Positions 2,872 to 53,222 of a stretch of 60,438 nucleotides of DNA are shown here, in pieces. This DNA is from Acidimicrobiia bacterium (lineage in GTDB: Bacteria > Actinomycetota > Acidimicrobiia > Spongiisociales > UBA11373), in contig DATECY010000087.1 of the NCBI GenBank assembly GCA_035286665.1, positions 1-60,438 on the forward strand. The letters are read 5' to 3'. The notes beneath the pieces are model-generated. The model was not told the DNA's origin. It saw only the letters and a program-made list of their open reading frames with translations, and did no database searches. The translations under genes were made by a program, and so were the position numbers. Position 1 is the stretch's first letter. Every line of letters begins with the position of its first letter.

Positions 2872-3832
2872 GAAGCCCTGCCCTGATCGACTCGATCACC
2901 TCATCGACCGTTCCCTTGGCCGTGAACCCTGCGGCGTTGTGATGCCCGCCCCCACCGTGAGCCGCGGCGACGGCACCCACGTCGGCGGTGCCGCGCGAAC
3001 GCATGCTCACCCGCCACCCCCCGTCCACCTCCTTGAGCAGCGCGGCCGTGCCGGCCTCCCTGGCAATCCTCAGGTCGTCGATGAGCCCGTCGAGGTCCTC
3101 ATAGGTGACCGCTGCCGACTTGAGATCGGCGTGGGTCACGTACGACCACACCAGGGACAGATCCTCCTCGAGGGTCGCCCGCCCGAGGACGGCAGCCGAT
3201 GCCATCAGGTACCCGAACGGCACGGACTCGTAGACCGCCTGTCCGATCACCTCGGGGCGAACGCCGGCGTCGAGGAGTCGGGCCGCCACCCGCATCACCT
3301 CCCCGTCGGTGGCCGAGTACTGGAAGCGTCCGGTGTCGGTGACGATCCCGGTGAGCAGGCAGGTGGCGATGGTCTCATCGATCTGCCACCCGAGCGCTTC
3401 GATCAGGTAGGTGCACAGCTGTGCCGACGCCGCCGCCTGGGGGTCGATGACGGCTATGTCACCAAAGCCGTCATTGGTCGCGTGGTGGTCGACGACCACG
3501 AGAGTTCCCGCCTTCTCGGCGGCGGCCCTGAGCTCACCGAGCCGGTCGGCCGAGCCGACGTCGAACACCACCATCAGCTCCGGTTCCGCGGGGAATCGAG
3601 CAACGGGGACGAGCAGGCTGGTGTCGAGAAACGCCAGCGACTGCGGCACGACGAAGGGGCCACCGAAGGACACGACGACGTCCTTGCCGGCGGCGCGTGC
3701 CGCGTAGCCGAGCGCCAGGGCGGAGCCGAGAGCGTCGCCGTCGGGTGAGACGTGACAGGAGATCGCCAGCGACGACGCCGACGCGATCGCATCAGTCGCT
3801 CGGCGGAGTGGTGCCTCGATCATCGGTCTCAT
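2864..3832 (-). CDS. nrnA: DHH/DHHA1 phosphoesterase (NrnA/CnpB-type oligoribonuclease / pAp phosphatase)
   Basis: HVSPDGDALGS, VVVDHHATN and GGGHHNAAGF motifs. Synteny between rbfA and truB. The start may be 3823. Confidence 0.85.
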   Translation of the reverse strand: MRPMIEAPLRRATDAIASASSLAISCHVSPDGDALGSALALGYAARAAGKDVVVSFGGPFVVPQSLAFLDTSLLVPVARFPAEPELMVVFDVGSADRLGELRAAAEKAGTLVVVDHHATNDGFGDIAVIDPQAAASAQLCTYLIEALGWQIDETIATCLLTGIVTDTGRFQYSATDGEVMRVAARLLDAGVRPEVIGQAVYESVPFGYLMASAAVLGRATLEEDLSLVWSYVTHADLKSAAVTYEDLDGLIDDLRIAREAGTAALLKEVDGGWRVSMRSRGTADVGAVAAAHGGGGHHNAAGFTAKGTVDEVIESIRAGLRG

Positions 3833-4175
3833 GTTCGCCGCCCAGGTCTCGAAGGAGTTGGTCCATCCTGATCCCGCGGTCGACGGACCCGTCGAACTCG
3901 AAATCGATTTTCGGCAGGTACTTCAGCCGTACCCGGCCACCCGTCGCCGCCCGGATCCGTGTCGACGCCCTGGCCAGGGCCGCGGCAGTCGACTCCCGCT
4001 CTTCTGCGTCGCCGAGCACGGAATAGTAGACCCGGGCGTTGCGAAGGTCCGGGGAGGTGTCGACATCGGTGATCGTGACGAATCCGAGACCGGGGTCTTT
4101 GAGGCGGGCGACCTCTTCGGCGATCACCTTGTGGAGTTGCTCGTTCACTCGGCGTAGGAAGGCGCTCTTGCTCAT
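3792..4175 (-). CDS. rbfA: ribosome-binding factor A
   Basis: RVNEQLHKVIAEEV...ITDVDTSPDLRNARVYYSVLG pattern. ATGA overlap with the DUF503 stop. Confidence 0.9.
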   Translation of the reverse strand: MSKSAFLRRVNEQLHKVIAEEVARLKDPGLGFVTITDVDTSPDLRNARVYYSVLGDAEERESTAAALARASTRIRAATGGRVRLKYLPKIDFEFDGSVDRGIRMDQLLRDLGGEHETDDRGTTPPSD

Positions 4176-4459
4176 GGCTCCTCCAGATAGGACACACCCA
4201 TCTCGATCAGTTCCACGGTCGAGTCCTCCAGCATCATCCTCTGCAACCCGTCGACGATTTCATCGAGACGGCCGCGCTGTGGCGCAACCACGGCGACGCC
4301 GACGGTGGCACGCTGCCAGTCGTCCTGATGGTCGACCTCGGCCACCGAGAGGTCACGCTCTCGGAGCCGCCGCAGGACCGGCCGAAGCACAGAACGCTTC
4401 GCCTTGAGCGATCGCGCATCCGGAATGCGCAGTTCGAGCCGAAGAGCGGCGGCGTGCAT
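4172..4459 (-). CDS. DUF503 (YlxP-like) protein
   Basis: 95 aa; L.LRIPDARSLKAKRSVLRPVL is typical of DUF503. Canonical position between infB and rbfA. No SD upstream of the ATG. Confidence 0.8.
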   Translation of the reverse strand: MHAAALRLELRIPDARSLKAKRSVLRPVLRRLRERDLSVAEVDHQDDWQRATVGVAVVAPQRGRLDEIVDGLQRMMLEDSTVELIEMGVSYLEEP

Positions 4460-4465
4460 GAGGAA

Positions 4466-4471
4466 AGGGTA
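4466..4471 (-). promoter_or_regulatory. candidate -10 hexamer TACCCT (TANNNT), 6 nt upstream of the SD-less DUF503 ATG (possible leaderless internal promoter)
   Basis: Minus strand reads gaTACCCTttcctcATG. The same hexamer sits 7 nt upstream of the ffh ATG. Purely positional inference. Confidence 0.2.
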
Positions 4472-4479
4472 TCGGGAGG

Positions 4480-4521
4480 GTTAGGAGTTAGGAGTCAGGA
4501 GTTAGGAGTTAGGAGTTAGGA
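4480..4521. repeat. heptamer tandem array GTTAGGA x6 (third copy GTCAGGA)
   Basis: Direct reading of 4480-4521, inside the infB/DUF503 spacer. Confidence 0.95.
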
Positions 4522-4530
4522 GTGCTGACC

Positions 4531-4567
4531 TAATCCCTAATCCCTAATCCCTAATCCCTAACCCCTA
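4531..4567 (-). repeat. heptamer tandem array TAATCCC x4 + TAACCCC. On the transcribed (minus) strand this reads uaGGGGuuaGGGauuaGGGauuaGGGauuaGGG, a G-quadruplex-type motif starting in the infB stop codon
   Basis: Direct reading. There are five G3+ tracts with 3-4 nt loops on the minus strand, and the last copy overlaps the infB TAG (4565-4567). Confidence 0.9.
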
Positions 4568-6703
4568 CGTCCTCGCGACCTCGCGCACCTCATACGCCTC
4601 GATCACGTCACCGTCCTTGATGTCCCGGAACCCGTCGAGGCCGATACCGCACTCGAACCCGGAAGCGACCGAGCGCACGTCGTCCTTGAACCGGCGCAGG
4701 GACCCGATCGTGCCCTCGTGCACGACGATGCCGTCGCGGATGAGCCGCACACGAGAGCCGCGGGCGATCTCACCCTCGGTGACCATGCAACCCGCGATCA
4801 GGCCGAAGCGCGGCGCCCGGAAGGTGGCCCTGACTTCGGCACTCCCCAGCACCCGCTCCACCTCGGTCGGGGCGAGACGACCCACCAGCATCGCCTCGAT
4901 GTCGTCGAGCAACTCGTAGATGATCCGGTAGGTACGGATCTCGATCCCGGCTTCTTCGGCGGCCTTGCGCGTCTTGGCATCGGGCCGGACGTTGAATCCG
5001 AAGATCACCGCGTTGGTGGCGGTGGCGAGCAGCACGTCGTTCTCGGTGATGCCACCGACCGCAGTGTGGGCGATGGTGATGCTGCCGCCCTCGCGCCCGA
5101 TCTTGCCGACGGCCTCGCGGATCGCCTCGAGGGAACCGTGGGCGTCCGCCTTGACGATGAGCACCAACTCGGCATCGTCTGCGGTGCGCAGATCGTCGAG
5201 CAGTTGGGTGAGGCGTTCCGCTGCGCTGGGAACGGTGAGCTCCTCGTTTCGGATCGCCGTCACCCGGTCGGACGCCATCGAGCGGGCCGCGCGGTCGTCC
5301 TCGACGACCTCGAAGTAGTCGCCGGCGAGCGGGACGTCGTCCCAGCCCATGACCAGGACCGGCGAGCTCGGAGGCGCCTCGTCGATCTGGCTGCCGTTTT
5401 CGTCGAACATCGCCCGGACCCGACCCGCCACGGTCCCGGCCACGAGAGCATCGCCCTTGCGGAGGGTTCCCCGCTGGACGATCACCGTGCCGAGGGGGCC
5501 GCGGCCCTTCTCCAGCTGGCCCTCGATCACGGTCCCCGAAGCGGGCACGTCGGGGTTGGCGGAGAACTCCTCGAGCTCGGCGATGAGGTCGATGTACTCG
5601 AGCAGGTGGTCGATGCCGGCGCCGGTGCTCGCGGACACTTCGGCGCTCACGACGTCGCCGCCCAGTTGCTCGACGAGGAGACCGTATTCGGTGAGCTGGG
5701 CACGGACGTTGGCGGGGTTCGCCCCGGGGAGGTCCATCTTGTTGATCGCCACCACGATCGGAACCTTGGCGGCCTTGGCATGGTTGATCGCCTCGACGGT
5801 CTGGGGCATCACACCGTCGTCACCGGCCACGACCAGCACCACGATGTCGGTGACCTCGGCACCACGCGCCCGCAGAGTGGTGAAGGCCTCGTGGCCCGGC
5901 GTGTCGATGAAGGTGATCTTTCGGTCACCGACGCTCGTCTGGTAGGCGCCGATGTGCTGCGTGATCCCGCCCGCCTCCCCCGCAACGACGTTCGCATGGC
6001 GAATCTTGTCGAGGAGCAGCGTCTTTCCGTGGTCGACGTGACCCATCACCGTCACCACCGGTGGGCGCGGCTTCATGTCCCCGACCACGTCGTGATGGTC
6101 CTTCTTGGGGCGAACCATCGGGGCAGCCTCTTCGACCACCTCGGCTGCCGCGGATTCGACGGTCACGTCGTAGCCGAGTGACTCGCCGATCACCGTGAGC
6201 AACTCGACCGGGATCGGCTGGGTGGCGCCGGCCATCTTGCCGCGGGTGATCAACTCGCGCACCACGATTCCCACGGGACGGCGGGTCAGTTCGGAGAACT
6301 CGGCGACGGTGATGCCGGCGCGAACGGTGATCGGGCGCTTCGGTTGGGGCCCTTCGGTGCCGGGCATCCGACCCTTGCGTTTGCCCGCCTTGGCCGCATG
6401 CTGCTTCGAGTCACCATCGGCCCCAGACTCGTCATCCTCATCCTCCAACTCCTCCTCGGCCTCGGACTCGACCTCGACCTCGACGACCGCCCCCACGGCG
6501 GCGGCCGGCGTCTTGGTCGCGGCGGCGGGTGCGGCGGCGGCGGCCGCTGCCTTCTCCTCGTCGTAGGAGAGCCGCACGAGCGCGGCGTCGTCATCGGAGA
6601 GGCCCGAGGAGGCCGTCTTGACGTCGATCCCCAGCTCCTGGACACGCGCCAGCACGTCCTTGGATTCCTTGCCGAGGTCTCGGGCGAGTTCGTAGACGCG
6701 CAT
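4565..6703 (-). CDS. infB: translation initiation factor IF-2
   Basis: MRVYELARDLG IF2-N start preceded by GGAGGctgaccATG. GTPase motifs VMGHVDHGKTLLLD, DTPGHEAF, NKMD. The track ORF extends 15 codons further to GTG 6748. Confidence 0.96.
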   Translation of the reverse strand: MRVYELARDLGKESKDVLARVQELGIDVKTASSGLSDDDAALVRLSYDEEKAAAAAAAPAAATKTPAAAVGAVVEVEVESEAEEELEDEDDESGADGDSKQHAAKAGKRKGRMPGTEGPQPKRPITVRAGITVAEFSELTRRPVGIVVRELITRGKMAGATQPIPVELLTVIGESLGYDVTVESAAAEVVEEAAPMVRPKKDHHDVVGDMKPRPPVVTVMGHVDHGKTLLLDKIRHANVVAGEAGGITQHIGAYQTSVGDRKITFIDTPGHEAFTTLRARGAEVTDIVVLVVAGDDGVMPQTVEAINHAKAAKVPIVVAINKMDLPGANPANVRAQLTEYGLLVEQLGGDVVSAEVSASTGAGIDHLLEYIDLIAELEEFSANPDVPASGTVIEGQLEKGRGPLGTVIVQRGTLRKGDALVAGTVAGRVRAMFDENGSQIDEAPPSSPVLVMGWDDVPLAGDYFEVVEDDRAARSMASDRVTAIRNEELTVPSAAERLTQLLDDLRTADDAELVLIVKADAHGSLEAIREAVGKIGREGGSITIAHTAVGGITENDVLLATATNAVIFGFNVRPDAKTRKAAEEAGIEIRTYRIIYELLDDIEAMLVGRLAPTEVERVLGSAEVRATFRAPRFGLIAGCMVTEGEIARGSRVRLIRDGIVVHEGTIGSLRRFKDDVRSVASGFECGIGLDGFRDIKDGDVIEAYEVREVART

Positions 6704-6744
6704 GGTCAGCCTCCGTGAACGGTCTTCATTGTGCCACGCAGGGG

Positions 6745-7905
6745 TCACGCCCCCGGCGGGGGCTCCTCAAGAGAAGCCTCAGGAGTCTCTTCGGACTCGG
6801 CGGCCTCGGGCGCCGCCGTGTCATCGGCCGCCTCTTCGGCGACACCCTCGACGCCGGCGGCGGCTTCCGCGGTCGCGGCAGAGGCCACGTCGGAGGTCGC
6901 TGCCGCAGGCGCATCGAGCGAAGCCTCGGCCATGCCTCCCGCCTGTTCTGTCTCCGAGCGGATGTCGATGCGGTAGCCGCTCAATCGCGCGGCGAGCCGA
7001 GCGTTCTGACCCTCCTTGCCGATGGCGAGGGACAGCTGATGATCGGGGACCACGACGATCGCCTCCATCGTGGCGTCGTCGAGGATCACCTGGCGCACCT
7101 TGGCCGGGCTCAGCGCCTCGGCGATGAACTGGCGGATGTCGTCACGCCATTCGACGATGTCGACCTTCTCGCCGCGCAACTCATTGACCACCTGGCGCAC
7201 ACGCGAGCCCCGGCTGCCGACGCACGCCCCCACCGGGTCGACGTTGGGGTCGTTGGAGCGGACGGCGATCTTGGTTCTATGGCCGGCATCGCGGGCGATC
7301 GCCCTGATCTCGATGATCCCTTCGACCAGTTCGGGAACCTCGAGCTCGAACAGACGACGGATGAAATCGGGATGGCTGCGGCTCACGACGATCTGGGGGC
7401 CCTTGGCCTCGCCGCGCACCTCGAGGATGAGCGCCTTCACCCGTGCGCCGCGCTCGAGTCGCTCATAGGCGATGCGCTCGCCGGCGGGCATCACCGCCTC
7501 GGCATTGCCGAGGTCGAGGATGACGACGCGGTGGTCGGACTGCTGCACGATGCCGGTGACGAGATCGCCCTCGCGCCCCTCGTAGGTGTCGAACACCTGG
7601 GCGCGCTTGGCGTCGCGAAGCCGCTGGAGGATGACCTGCTTGGCGGTCTGTGCCCCGATCCGCCCGAAGTCGTCGGGGGTGTCCTCCCACTCGCGAACGA
7701 CGTTGCCGTCCTCGTCGAGTTCCTGGCCGTACACCTTGATCTCACCGGTGTCCTGATCGATGGTGACCCGGGCTTCCTCGGCCGCGCCGGGGCTGCGCTT
7801 GTAGGCGGACACCAACGCGTTGGCGAGGGCGTCGAGGATCATCGCCTTGGGGACGCCCTTCTCGCGCTCGAGGAGCTCCAGTTCCTCCATGAAGGATTCG
7901 TTCAT
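6745..7905 (-). CDS. nusA: transcription termination/antitermination factor NusA with acidic C-terminal tail
   Basis: MNESFMEELELLEREKGVPKAMILDALANAL start, then S1 and KH regions. The 589-aa track ORF is a 5' extension running through rimP. Confidence 0.94.
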   Translation of the reverse strand: MNESFMEELELLEREKGVPKAMILDALANALVSAYKRSPGAAEEARVTIDQDTGEIKVYGQELDEDGNVVREWEDTPDDFGRIGAQTAKQVILQRLRDAKRAQVFDTYEGREGDLVTGIVQQSDHRVVILDLGNAEAVMPAGERIAYERLERGARVKALILEVRGEAKGPQIVVSRSHPDFIRRLFELEVPELVEGIIEIRAIARDAGHRTKIAVRSNDPNVDPVGACVGSRGSRVRQVVNELRGEKVDIVEWRDDIRQFIAEALSPAKVRQVILDDATMEAIVVVPDHQLSLAIGKEGQNARLAARLSGYRIDIRSETEQAGGMAEASLDAPAAATSDVASAATAEAAAGVEGVAEEAADDTAAPEAAESEETPEASLEEPPPGA

Positions 7906-19737: not shown

Positions 19738-19765
19738 GATTCGCAATTGGCAATTGGCAATTCGA
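19738..19765. repeat. heptamer tandem array GATTCGC AATTGGC AATTGGC AATTCGA (GCAATTG x3 in the other register)
   Basis: Direct reading, between the whiG stop and the rpsB start. Confidence 0.85.
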
Positions 19766-40526: not shown

Positions 40527-40555
40527 CAGGCAGTGGTCGGGAGAGGGCTTTACAC

Positions 40556-40583
40556 GATGCGCGATGCGCGATGCGCGATGCGC
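40556..40583. repeat. heptamer tandem array GATGCGC x4
   Basis: Direct reading. Confidence 0.95.
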
Positions 40584-40600
40584 GCTAGAACGGTGCCAGG

Positions 40601-40621
40601 AACGAGCAACCGGCAACGGCA
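40601..40621. repeat. degenerate heptamer array AACGAGC AACCGGC AACGGCA (GCAACSG register)
   Basis: Direct reading. GCAACGG recurs as a reverse complement at 46021-46041. Confidence 0.6.
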
Positions 40622-40629
40622 CCCTCCTG

Positions 40630-40661
40630 CGAATTACGAATTACGAATTACGAATTACGAA
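40630..40661. repeat. AT-rich heptamer tandem array CGAATTA x4 plus a partial copy
   Basis: Direct reading. 2 of 7 bases per unit are G/C, in a high-GC genome. Confidence 0.95.
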
Positions 40662-40703
40662 GATGGGCGATGGGCGATGGGCGATGGGCGATGGGCGATG
40701 GGA
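40662..40703. repeat. heptamer tandem array GATGGGC x5 plus a degenerate GATGGGA
   Basis: Direct reading. It ends 35 nt before the upp ATG. Confidence 0.95.
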
Positions 40704-42929: not shown

Positions 42930-43753
42930 GTTACGAAGCGATCGAGCAGGCCCGGGCCGCCATCGCCGAGGCGACGGGACGGCCCCGTCATCGACTGGCG
43001 GTCGTGCTCGGCTCGGGGCTCAGCGACTACGCCGGCGCCCTCCCCGGAGTCCGCGGCATCCCCTACGACGACATCCCCGGCTTTCCGGTGCCCCGGGTCG
43101 AGGGCCATGCCGGGTCGCTCTACTCCGTGGACCTCGACGGTCCCGTCATGATCCTCGCCGGTCGGGTCCACACCTTCGAGGGATGGGATCTCGGCGATGT
43201 CGTGTTCACGGTTCGTACCGCGGTGCTGTCCGGATGCACGACGGTCGTGCTCACCAACGCCGCCGGCGGATGCGGCGATGGGTTGGCGCCAGGAGACCTC
43301 GTGCTGATCAAGGATCACCTCAACCTGACGGCGCGCAATCCCCTCGTCGGCGCCAACGACGATCGCCTCGGGCCCCGTTTCCCCGACATGTCGACGGTGT
43401 ACCCGTCCGACCTGCGCGCCCGAGCACGGGCGATCGGCGATCGGGTCGGCGTTTCACTCGGCGAAGGGGTGTATGCCTGGTTCCTCGGGCCTTCGTACGA
43501 GACCCCCGCCGAGGTACAGATGGCCCGGCGCCTCGGTGCCGACCTGGTCGGCATGTCGACGGTGCCCGAAGCGATCGCGGCCCGGCACATGGGCGCCAAG
43601 GTCCTCGGGATCTCCCTGGTCACCAACCTGGCGGCGGGAATCTCCCCTACGCCGCTGAGCCACGCCGAGGTGACGGCGACGGCGAATGCCGCACAGGAGC
43701 GGTTCGCGACCCTGCTCGACGCGTTGCTCCCGGAGCTGGCGAGCAGCGAGTAG
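42926..43753 (+). CDS. punA: purine nucleoside phosphorylase (trimeric PNP/PunA type)
   Basis: VVLGSGL, VEGHAGSLY, GRVHTFEG, GPSYETPAE, VGMSTVPE motifs. Confidence 0.93.
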   Translation: MSYEAIEQARAAIAEATGRPRHRLAVVLGSGLSDYAGALPGVRGIPYDDIPGFPVPRVEGHAGSLYSVDLDGPVMILAGRVHTFEGWDLGDVVFTVRTAVLSGCTTVVLTNAAGGCGDGLAPGDLVLIKDHLNLTARNPLVGANDDRLGPRFPDMSTVYPSDLRARARAIGDRVGVSLGEGVYAWFLGPSYETPAEVQMARRLGADLVGMSTVPEAIAARHMGAKVLGISLVTNLAAGISPTPLSHAEVTATANAAQERFATLLDALLPELASSE

Positions 43754-43772
43754 CAGGCGCAGGTCGCAGGTC
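43753..43772. repeat. heptamer array GCAGGC GCAGGTC GCAGGTC, beginning at the last base of the punA TAG
   Basis: Direct reading. Confidence 0.75.
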
Positions 43773-43786
43773 TTCTTGCAGGAGGC

Positions 43787-43808
43787 CGGAGACGGGAGAC
43801 GGGAGCCG
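43787..43808. repeat. heptamer array CGGAGAC GGGAGAC GGGAGCC
   Basis: Direct reading. Confidence 0.75.
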
Positions 43809-45964: not shown

Positions 45965-45985
45965 CATCGCTCTTCGCTCATCGCC
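45965..45985. repeat. heptamer array CATCGCT CTTCGCT CATCGCC (reverse complement register GATGAGC GAAGAGC GATG)
   Basis: Direct reading. Confidence 0.75.
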
Positions 45986-45993
45986 TCTCCGTA

Positions 45994-46041
45994 GAAGGCC
46001 GAAAGCGAAGGTCGACCATCCCGTTACCCGTTGCCCGTCAG
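45994..46041. repeat. two adjoining degenerate heptamer arrays: GAAGGCC GAAAGC GAAGGTC GACCATC, then CCGTTAC CCGTTGC CCGTCAG
   Basis: Direct reading. Confidence 0.7.
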
Positions 46042-50942: not shown

Positions 50943-50984
50943 GTTAGGAGAGCTGTGAGCTGTGAGCTGTGAGCTGTGAGCTCA
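50943..50984. repeat. GTTAGGA x1 followed by the heptamer array GAGCTGT x4 + GAGCTCA. The last copy contains the stop codon of the lipoprotein gene
   Basis: Direct reading, between the smc start (50902) and the lipoprotein stop (50982-50984). Confidence 0.95.
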
Positions 50985-52471: not shown

Positions 52472-53222
52472 CCTCGTCGCCGAGTGCCTCGAGAGCCGCC
52501 CTGGCGGCGTCCTGTTCTGCTCGCTTCTTTGAAGATCCCGAGCCTGTCCCCAATACGCGCCCATCGAGCGTCACCTTCGACCGGTAGGTGCGCTGATGAT
52601 CCGGGCCAAATCCGTCGGCGTCATAGGCGGGTATCGAGCCCTGCTTGGCGAGGATCTCCTGAAGGCGGGTCTTGTAGTCGCGTTCACCGGGCGTCACCGC
52701 ACGGTCTCGGATCATCGGCGCCCAGTACCGAAGCACCATATTGCGAACGGCACTGAGTCCGCCATCGAGAAACGCCGCGCCAATGACCGCTTCGAGGGCG
52801 TCAGCCAGAATCGGGGCCTTGGCGCGGCCGCCGGAAGCGTCCTCGCCCTTGCCGAGGCGGAGTGCCACGTCAAGGCCAACTTCCCTGGCAACCGTGGCAA
52901 GGGGCGACTCGCTGACGACCGCCGCTCGGACCTTGCTCATCTCGCCCTCGGTCAGATCCCACTCCTCGTGGAGCACGGCCGAGACCACGAGATCGAGCAC
53001 CGCATCACCGAGGAACTCGAGCCGCTCATTGGACTCGGCAGCGGCTCCCTCGACGGTCGCCGAACTGTGGGTGAGGGCTCGGTTCAGCAGCGATCGATCA
53101 CGGAACGTGTAGCCGAGAGCGGCCTCGAGTGACCGCTCTTCGGCAGAGGCACCGGCGGGAGGCGACGGACCCGCACCCGAGTGTCGAAACCAACCCCTGA
53201 CGCGACGCCACAAGTCACCCAC
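52464..53222 (-). CDS. rnc: ribonuclease III
   Basis: LTHSSA...NERLEFLGDAVLDLVV signature and a C-terminal dsRBD. Start uncertain; GTG 53222 overlaps the plsX stop by 8 nt. Confidence 0.9.
   Translation of the reverse strand: MGDLWRRVRGWFRHSGAGPSPPAGASAEERSLEAALGYTFRDRSLLNRALTHSSATVEGAAAESNERLEFLGDAVLDLVVSAVLHEEWDLTEGEMSKVRAAVVSESPLATVAREVGLDVALRLGKGEDASGGRAKAPILADALEAVIGAAFLDGGLSAVRNMVLRYWAPMIRDRAVTPGERDYKTRLQEILAKQGSIPAYDADGFGPDHQRTYRSKVTLDGRVLGTGSGSSKKRAEQDAARAALEALGDEDA

Follow-up and report, generated by a model that had tools for sequence, protein, structure and literature searches.

Why should an operon that otherwise packs its genes tightly hold a spacer of 105 nt after infB, made almost wholly of seven-nucleotide repeats? 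The question arises in a stretch of 60,438 nucleotides (hereafter the window: contig DATECY010000087.1 of assembly GCA_035286665.1) from an uncultured member of the Acidimicrobiia, a metagenome-assembled genome (MAG) of 2.13 Mb in 202 contigs with 68% GC, whose closest named genome is 'Actinobacteria bacterium RBG_16_68_21'. The answer I consider likely is that the spacer joins two things: a gene-less hairpin with a TTAGG core, belonging to a genome-wide class of heptamer arrays associated with genes of the PF05635 family, and a leaderless promoter. In what follows G000 is this assembly, other G numbers are related genomes, L numbers are individual loci or contigs, and C numbers are contigs of G000.

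Layout of the spacer

The spacer (4460-4564, transcribed from the minus strand) separates infB, which encodes IF-2 (4565..6748, minus strand in the table of open reading frames (ORFs); Pfam domains IF2_N, GTP_EFTU, IF-2 and EF-G_D2), from a DUF503 gene of 95 amino acids (4172..4459, minus strand; PF04456, E 2.7e-25, from residue 5). On sister contigs infB is called as 713 amino acids, which would set its start near 6706. Pfam identifies the products of the surrounding minus-strand operon as IF-2, DUF503, RbfA, a DHH/DHHA1 protein (NrnA-like), TruB and RibF. The ATGA-type overlaps reported in an initial annotation of this DNA are present in the ORF table, 4 nt each, between DUF503 and rbfA (4172-4175) and between truB and ribF (1999-2002). 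Relatives of the DUF503 protein align from residue 1, and an in-frame TAA lies 8 codons upstream of its ATG (4457-4459).

Read on the minus strand, the junction is ACG-TAG-GGG-TTA-(GGGATTA)x4-GG-TCAGCAC-(TCCTAAC)x3-TCCTGAC-(TCCTAAC)x2-CCTCCCGATACCCTTTCCTC-ATG. The stop codon of infB, TAG (4565-4567, minus strand), sits inside the first, degenerate repeat unit (G-TAGGG-G). In the mRNA, a 5' arm of GGGGUUA, four GGGAUUA and GG (4529..4567), which is the TTAGGGA array, is followed by a loop, UCAGCAC (4522..4528), the sole non-repeat stretch between the arms, and then by a 3' arm of six UCCUAAC units, one of them UCCUGAC (4480..4521), which an inverted-repeat search also found; all three are on the minus strand. 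Tandem Repeats Finder (TRF), used here to call repeat arrays as Pfam was used to identify genes, reports GTTAGGA x6.3 at 4480-4523 (score 81, 94% matches) and CCTAATC x5.6 at 4529-4567 (score 71, 96% matches). Both arrays hold more than the three head-to-tail 7-nt copies that mark the long simple sequence repeats (LSSRs) and short tandemly repeated repetitive (STRR) sequences of other bacteria. The initial annotation had described two opposed heptamer arrays that start inside the infB stop codon, and so the sequence reads, arrays and orientation alike. One refinement is due: a single TTAGG-core heptamer makes both arms in inverted orientation, reading TTAGGGA on the minus strand for one and TTAGGAG on the plus strand for the other.

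Hairpin or G-quadruplex

The 5' arm holds five tracts of three or more Gs (G3+) with loops of 3-4 nt, and within it GGGGTTAGGGATTAGGGATTAGGGATTAGGG matches the regular expression for a G-quadruplex (G4), bearing out the claim of a canonical motif that starts from the infB stop codon. At least four G3+ tracts with short loops are likewise the mark of the heptamers described by Rehm et al. 2015, though the unit here is GGGATTA rather than their GGGAATC or GGGGA(C/T)T. The second arm is nearly the complement of the first, also as claimed: the arms match over 39 nt at 74%, each pair of heptads giving five Watson-Crick pairs, one G-U and one A-C. When folding and G4 prediction were run, the imperfect hairpin and the quadruplex both proved real as predicted structures, and mutually exclusive.

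They are far from equal in strength. A 131-nt RNA of this region is predicted to form a single long imperfect hairpin of ~35 bp at -55.9 kcal/mol, a stability that none of 200 dinucleotide shuffles reached (z = -5.25). A long stem made by terminal inverted repeats, here of some 35 pairs, is also what characterizes the intervening sequences (IVSs) of 23S rRNA. With the quadruplex (gquad) option of ViennaRNA, the G arm alone reaches -15.0 kcal/mol as a G4 against -4.3 without one, a gain of ~11. In the nascent RNA the G4 is the structure of minimum free energy (MFE) until about three CU heptads have been transcribed, after which the hairpin takes its place; in the full-length RNA only the hairpin is predicted, and it beats the G4 by ~40 kcal/mol. 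By these energy models the hairpin is thermodynamically dominant.

The initial annotation went on to propose a dedicated attenuator within the operon, in which G4 and hairpin as alternative folds tune rbfA-truB-ribF relative to infB. The canonical motif and the early advantage of the G4 in nascent RNA are in keeping with this, as are the in vitro G4s of similar GGGNATC arrays (PMC4692102) and the retention of at least four G-tracts in six of the seven array-bearing strain variants described below. But the seventh variant keeps only 3 tracts, sister species have C-rich first arms with fewer than 4, and it is the promoter box beside the arrays that is conserved, not the arrays. Among the heptamer arrays of the whole genome, 25 of 222 are capable of forming a G4, and units with GGG or CCC (45/222) are about as frequent as composition would have them, the G-rich strand being sense at some loci and antisense elsewhere. 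The infB spacer is not a dedicated G-quadruplex switch; once three CU heptads have been made, a G4 arm worth about -15 kcal/mol faces a hairpin of -55.9, and a locus-specific attenuator of this design is very improbable.

Two other structural readings were set aside. There is no strand asymmetry in the RNA fold, since the RNAs of the two strands fold about equally well (-45.4 against -43.5). A structure in the DNA itself, such as a cruciform, was dropped because neither strand folds strongly as single-stranded DNA (-15.7 and -15.5 kcal/mol, z -1.35 and -1.10). Rfam at its gathering score has no match in the window, and its E-value mode returned only far sub-threshold matches to hairpins resembling miRNA precursors.

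Rapid change at the junction

Ten contigs from other metagenome samples encode an identical DUF503 protein. Their DUF503 DNA is identical at 288/288 positions, and identity over the final 300 nt of infB is 98.7-100%. TTAGG arrays occur in seven of the contigs, in spacers of 77, 91, 98 or 105 nt, with 4-5 units in the G arm and 3-7 in the CU arm (copy numbers, like those of G000, being read from short-read assemblies). The arms differ in 7-nt steps and independently of one another, and the loop UCAGCAC is unchanged in all seven. The other three (L165, L170 and L171; positions 1352-1503) have an unrelated spacer of 146 nt with CCTGCAG/GCTGCAG-type arrays. Within a population that is ~99% identical, the spacer has been replaced wholesale. 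Because spacers differ so much between near-identical flanking genes, the arrays must evolve far faster than point substitutions accumulate, and copy-number polymorphism between close strains is a further trait that the infB spacer shares with LSSRs and STRR sequences.

The same picture holds on a wider scale. In most Acidimicrobiia the junction measures -1 to 30 nt and either is an overlap or carries a GGAGG box. Spacers of 115-223 nt are confined to the nearest clade; 7-nt periodicity is dominant in them and the units are genome-specific, several of the arrays likewise beginning at the stop codon. Heptamer-filled spacers were found at 9 of 80 named relatives' loci, each with its own units; the junction heptamers of the congeners G001 and G002 differ from those of G000, and (TTAGGGA)x3 occurs in 2 of 401 Acidimicrobiia. 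A spacer hairpin recurs in G001 (outer stem, z -6.3) and in L038 (z -3.6). The notion of a conserved element specific to this locus does not survive the comparison: relatives carry unrelated repeats or none, the very observation that the initial annotation had named as telling against it.

Expansion of the junction mostly tracks a trait of the genome as a whole. G002, G015 and G014, all with heptamer-filled junction spacers, have 6-15 arrays per 100 kb, against 0 in G007, G021, G018 and G012 and 1.2 in G009, none of which is heptamer-filled at the junction. G031 is an exception, with 11 arrays per 100 kb yet a junction of 19 nt.

A genome-wide class of heptamer arrays

The hairpin of the infB spacer is one copy of a genome-wide class of heptamer arrays that hug stop codons. 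TRF finds 222 non-overlapping period-7 arrays in the 2.13 Mb of G000, built from 83 distinct units. Clustered by period, there are 187 groups at 7 as against 8 at period 6 and 1 at period 8, while triplet-period arrays are coding. Fully 203 of the 223 period-7 rows (91%) are intergenic in a genome whose non-coding share is only 10%, judged by a gene map from a purpose-built codon-usage caller (2114 genes, 90% coding, with start positions approximate). Such a mostly intergenic excess of period 7 across the genome is what defines LSSRs and STRR sequences elsewhere. The density of arrays per kb falls from 1.34 in convergent spacers to 1.04 in co-oriented and 0.42 in divergent ones, and array ends lie within 5 nt of a stop codon or overlap it in 43 of 177 cases, compared with 13 of 159 for start codons.

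Inverted pairing, too, is general. Among 60 pairs of neighbouring arrays, 22 match as inverse complements at 5 or more of 7 positions, whereas 18.5% of random pairs do so; neither direct similarity nor perfect 7/7 complementarity is enriched. Of the 18 co-oriented spacers that hold at least two arrays, 10 give folds with z < -3, a level reached by 12% of spacers with at most one array. There is no single consensus across copies such as unites enterobacterial repetitive extragenic palindromic (REP) sequences: the 83 units are diverse, and the TTAGG core is common to 6 loci only.

Several simpler accounts of the class were tried and discarded. Stop codons are not a design rule of the units, a sense-strand stop triplet being present in 19% of them against 30% of shuffled units; arrays that abut a stop codon are the only group enriched (40%). 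A tie between arrays and leaderless promoters is weak (17/70 vs 67/405). A miniature transposable element with a conserved core is not indicated either, as the three TTAGG hairpins of G000 have only repeat units in common, with unrelated loops and flanks, and the lack of any other similarity between C174 and C87 speaks against a duplicate-contig artefact.

The two hairpins besides that of infB, both TTAGGGA/CTCCTAA and both between co-oriented genes, are at C174:4448-4625 and C4:6535-6650. At the first, the upstream gene ends within the G-rich repeats, which code for its final residues (…RVGMG*); at the second, the final CTCCTAA unit provides the A of the next gene's ATG. Elsewhere in the window, TRF finds heptamers of other kinds in spacers at 40555-40702, 19739-19762, 43753-43805, 45965-46038, 50950-50982 and 1025-1058. 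Between ffh and upp, for example, stand CGATGCG x4, CGAATTA x4.6 and GATGGGC x5.9. There is no complementary pair among these further arrays of the window. Of all 222 arrays, 34 are in contig-terminal spacers with no called gene before the contig end. Heptamer repeats may contribute to breaks in the G000 assembly, and if they do, counts of arrays and of PF05635 genes would therefore be underestimates.

Association with PF05635 genes

What might connect so many unlike units? G000 has five genes of the PF05635 family, which also match TIGR02436, and all five stand between inverted heptamer arrays, each pair with a unit of its own. They are at C174:276-632 (in L172; arms ATGAGTG/ACTCARG), C174:5890-6258 (in L117; arms GGGATTA/CCCTAAT; called IVP1 here), C35:2120-2470 (AGACACC/GTCTGGN), C116:21011-21403 (AAGTAGC/GYSACTT) and C23:8225-8584 (GAGCGAT/CATCGCT). 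The closest solved structure to a PF05635 protein of G000 is that of Xanthomonas XCC0516 (2GSC, E 2e-20). An ORF of this family between the arms, the hallmark of the 23S rRNA IVS, is thus found at these five loci and is absent at infB. Relatives supplied 19 further PF05635 genes, of which 15 have inverted heptamer arrays on both sides, making 20 of 24 overall, and among them is the single copy of G007, a genome otherwise without arrays in 100 kb. Across the 21 genomes sampled, 5 or more arrays per 100 kb were found in 9 of 12 with PF05635 and in 1 of 9 without (one-sided Fisher p ~0.006, in which, as in all the comparative counts across relatives, phylogeny is not corrected for).

The TTAGG core allows a sharper comparison. 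Among 41 relatives, (TTAGGNN)x3 arrays occur only in G000, with 9 arrays at 6 loci of which three are opposed pairs after stop codons, and in G006, with 54 matches, many of them opposed pairs. G000 and G006 alone have the IVP1-type paralogue, 66-68% identical, at a syntenic site and with TTAGG-core arms; all other PF05635 matches are at most 52% identical. The congeners G001, G002 and G018 have neither the IVP1-type gene nor TTAGG-core arrays. The heptamer class, and the TTAGG core in particular, is associated with PF05635 genes.

G006 belongs to the same family but another genus, and has about 30 TTAGG-core loci in which the 6th and 7th bases vary (TTAGGTA, TTAGGTG, TTAGGCG and others). Its arrays are exemplified by L111 1490-1570 and L113 1490-1545; just as at infB, some of them begin right on a TAG stop. 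In its congener G018 both TTAGG-core arrays and PF05635 genes are lacking. The five paralogues of G000 are not a recent burst, because they are mutually only 38-51% identical. Nor are they Avd genes of a diversity-generating retroelement (DGR), a context that was rejected because no reverse transcriptase (RVT_1) was found in the G000 assembly. A literature search found no paper linking PF05635 to heptamer repeats.

The association invites a bolder idea, that the heptamer-armed hairpins, including the one at infB, are non-autonomous copies of a self-propagating element whose autonomous form is a PF05635 gene between inverted heptamer arrays. Each PF05635 lineage would have its cognate 5-nt core, TTAGG in the case of the IVP1 type, and the protein would recognize, seed or maintain the arrays. 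I hold this to be possible rather than probable.

A competing view is that there is no element at all. Neutral replication slippage that favours 7-nt units, with no tie to PF05635 and no function in RNA, might produce the arrays, and a hairpin might result where a short inverted repeat already existed and slippage or template switching amplified both of its arms. Copy steps of 7 nt, arms that change independently and complete turnover within a species are what slippage should leave behind. The diversity of the 83 units fits as well, and so does complementarity that is enriched only at 5-6 of 7 positions and not at all seven. Several further observations weigh against the reading I prefer; those on G002 and L021 and on missing gene remnants also speak for this one. 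The spacers of G002 and L021 fold no better than shuffles (z -0.68 and +0.87). Since relatives do not keep the hairpin as such and each arm changes in length on its own, it is doubtful that the stem has a selected function in RNA. A tblastn search found no PF05635 remnant in the 7-nt loop at infB or in other gene-less hairpins, so nothing supports descent by deletion, and the link is one of association. G007, G012 and G009 have one PF05635 gene each, yet the 40-100 kb sampled hold few other arrays or none, and G033 has an array pair with no PF05635 gene detected.

Against slippage alone stands the distribution of the arrays. Close relatives of similar GC and genome size have 0 arrays per 100 kb in some cases and 6-42 in others, a patchy trait that mostly tracks PF05635. 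Most PF05635 genes (the 20 of 24 above) lie between inverted arrays, a single core goes one-to-one with a single PF05635 paralogue over 41 genomes, and the arms of the IVP1 type have retained that core at a syntenic site in two genera. I therefore think it quite unlikely that the arrays are slippage products and nothing more, and prefer to see the infB hairpin as a member of a PF05635-associated class. Slippage as the mechanism by which arrays change is something I infer, as are processing of the RNA or protection of its 3' end by the stem, descent from, or dependence on, a PF05635 element, and any causal role of the PF05635 protein.

A candidate leaderless promoter

Leaderless promoters of Actinobacteria, as known from mycobacterial maps of transcription start sites, carry TANNNT some 7 nt before a start codon at which transcription also begins. 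The DUF503 gene has the features of such a promoter. TACCCT (4466..4471, minus strand) is a candidate -10 hexamer at -12..-7 from the A of the ATG, followed by a pyrimidine-rich discriminator, and no Shine-Dalgarno-like purine run was seen 5' of the ATG, as the initial annotation had stated. The likeness to the actinobacterial type extends to each of these points; the differences are that here the box abuts a repeat array and that the start is placed by motif. Leaderless architecture would account for the missing Shine-Dalgarno sequence.

Of all genes in the genome that have a gap of 40 nt or more upstream, 8.4% show TANNNT beginning at -12 and 6.3% show it at -13, over a background of ~0.4%. 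The aligned class has the consensus TA-C-C-C-T and a pyrimidine-rich discriminator with no -35 signal, and the same architecture precedes about 15-20% of G000 genes with an upstream gap; a large share of G000 genes looks leaderless. An E. coli-type sigma-70 scan of window positions 1-60000 found 0 promoters where ~3 were expected and is uninformative for this organism. At the junction TACCCT is present in G000, G002 and the strains with divergent spacers, and G001 has TAACCT. The -10 box is retained in 10 of 10 strain contigs, and in all those with TTAGG arrays the last 20 nt of the spacer and the 3' boundary of the array are invariant. An internal leaderless promoter, suggested at the outset, gains support from a box at the modal position that sister species and strain variants keep, and promoter activity is supported at the level of motif.

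An array of changeable length just upstream of a promoter brings phase variation to mind, with array copy number switching the strength of the DUF503 promoter as at a contingency locus. Copy number is indeed polymorphic in the population, and the CU arm stops 9 nt before the -10 box. But since nothing changes in the 3' boundary of the array or in the 20 nt leading to the ATG, the core promoter keeps its geometry from allele to allele. Moreover, promoters of this class lack a -35 element, the genes downstream are housekeeping genes, and Rehm et al. came to a likewise negative verdict on their arrays (PMC4692102). Phase-variable control is extremely improbable.

The stem as a possible terminator or stabilizer

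There is a more serious claim for the stem itself, that it was selected as a factor-independent terminator or attenuator ending the nusA-infB transcript, or as a REP-like stabilizer protecting its 3' end. The stem is strong and directly follows the stop codon, G001 has an equivalent outer stem (with the z of -6.3 already given), and throughout the genome it is at gene 3' ends that arrays tend to lie. Canonical terminators, a hairpin plus U-tract, are moreover undetectable in the genome, so stems without U's may serve instead: the 60 kb hold 11 such sites against ~16.5 expected, all inside genes. None lies within 3700-5200, where the stem is followed by CCCUCCCGAUACCC. Like the sigma-70 scan, this E. 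coli-type terminator scan says little about the organism as a whole. Other facts point the opposite way: the stem has no U-tract, its equivalent is not conserved in G002 or L021, and arm lengths drift independently. There is also no strand-specific signal, because the antisense RNA folds equally well. I consider selection for such a function unlikely, and return to the reading of a PF05635-associated hairpin set beside a promoter.

Known repeats compared

REP sequences and the bacterial interspersed mosaic elements (BIMEs) of enterobacteria are imperfect hairpins that follow stop codons within operons and can uncouple neighbouring cistrons. The imperfect hairpin of the infB spacer likewise follows a stop codon inside an operon. 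REPs, though, have one consensus and are not tandem, while each heptamer locus has its own unit and a drifting copy number.

Closer in form are the heptamers of Rehm et al. 2015 (PMC4692102), GGGAATC in Xanthomonas and GGGGA(C/T)T in Nostoc, which are spread over the genome, strongly intergenic, preferred between co-oriented ORFs and depleted in divergent spacers. Their copy number and sequence vary in close relatives, and some form inverted pairs, for which competition between stem-loop and G4 was noted. Shared with them are, at infB, tandem 7-nt units with one G3-4 tract each and, across G000, the distribution over spacers. The arrays of G000 differ in that the unit at infB has a TTAGG core in place of GGGNATC and a second arm that is an imperfect complement, in that most of the 83 units of G000 are not G4-capable, and in their host, an Acidimicrobiia MAG. 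A link to PF05635 is unreported there, though XCC0516 (2GSC) is a Xanthomonas protein.

Another match is offered by the LSSRs of Mrazek, Guo and Shah (2007), whose units measure 7 nt, and by the STRR heptamers of cyanobacteria, as both are summarised in PMC4679880 and PMC4692102. Those summaries describe a genome-specific excess of period 7 over other non-triplet periods, intergenic, with several units and a patchy phylogeny, all of which holds in G000. Compared with what is summarised, the G000 arrays stand apart in being often paired as inverted arms and in having a 5-nt core plus two variable bases. The same two papers relay from Mrazek et al. 2007 the idea that contacts of the polymerase underlie a preference for slippage by 7 nt. 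The TAACTGA heptamers of marine Beggiatoaceae (MacGregor 2015, PMC4679880), whose origin is not known, are also abundant, intergenic direct repeats with a patchy distribution, but their unit is always the same one, most of them directly precede a start codon, and inverted copies are very rare. A literature search found no description of such heptamer arrays in Acidimicrobiia.

The 23S rRNA IVS of Coxiella, Leptospira and others carries an S23p ORF and has a stem that is cut by RNase III, and the element is deemed selfish (Warrier et al. 2016, PMC4990558). A PF05635 ORF within the long-stem inverted repeats is what it shares with all five PF05635 loci of G000. The infB element differs in having no ORF, in occupying an mRNA spacer instead of helix 25 or 45 of 23S rRNA, and in having tandem heptamers for arms. 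The window itself encodes an RNase III (52725-53099, minus strand; PF14622, E 1.4e-34), a candidate enzyme for cutting long heptamer stems.

A model for the junction

I propose that positions 4480-4567 are a gene-less hairpin element, two inverted TTAGGNN arrays set directly on the infB stop codon, and that it is one copy of a lineage-specific class of intergenic 7-nt repeats, of the kind represented by cyanobacterial STRR sequences and Xanthomonas GGGAATC. In this Acidimicrobiia order the arrays of the class form the inverted arms around PF05635 genes, which encode Avd-like four-helix-bundle proteins of the S23p (23S-rRNA-IVS-protein) type. The arrays gain and lose 7-nt units and are overwritten within a species, filling whatever room a stop codon leaves before the next core promoter. 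Their exact sequence, number of copies and capacity to form G4s are accordingly under no fine constraint.

The constrained part would be positions 4460-4479, a leaderless promoter for DUF503-rbfA-nrnA-truB-ribF with its start presumably at the A of the ATG. If so, the genus has exchanged the coupling of infB and DUF503, -1 to 30 nt in most Acidimicrobiia, for a promoter, and heptamer arrays have colonized the freed space. In RNA that reads through, the arms should pair into an imperfect duplex of ~35 bp, which by analogy with IVS stems would be a plausible substrate for RNase III or a barrier at the 3' end, parting the message of infB from those downstream.

Taken singly, the locus is nothing unusual: a repeat hairpin that evolves fast, placed after a stop codon and before a promoter. 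It shows, however, how the conserved, translationally coupled nusA-infB-rbfA junction can be broken, by a leaderless promoter plus repeat filler in one genus. The strain variants, with 3-7 units per arm and identical flanks, are a natural allele series in which termination, RNase III processing and mRNA stability might be tested. The comparative contrasts tie one heptamer core to one PF05635 paralogue, and so open the origin of bacterial heptamer repeats to tests by binding and genetics. If the idea of a self-propagating element is true, it would account for the decades-old excess of 7-nt repeats, STRR, LSSR and GGGAATC alike, and tie them to the IVS of 23S rRNA.

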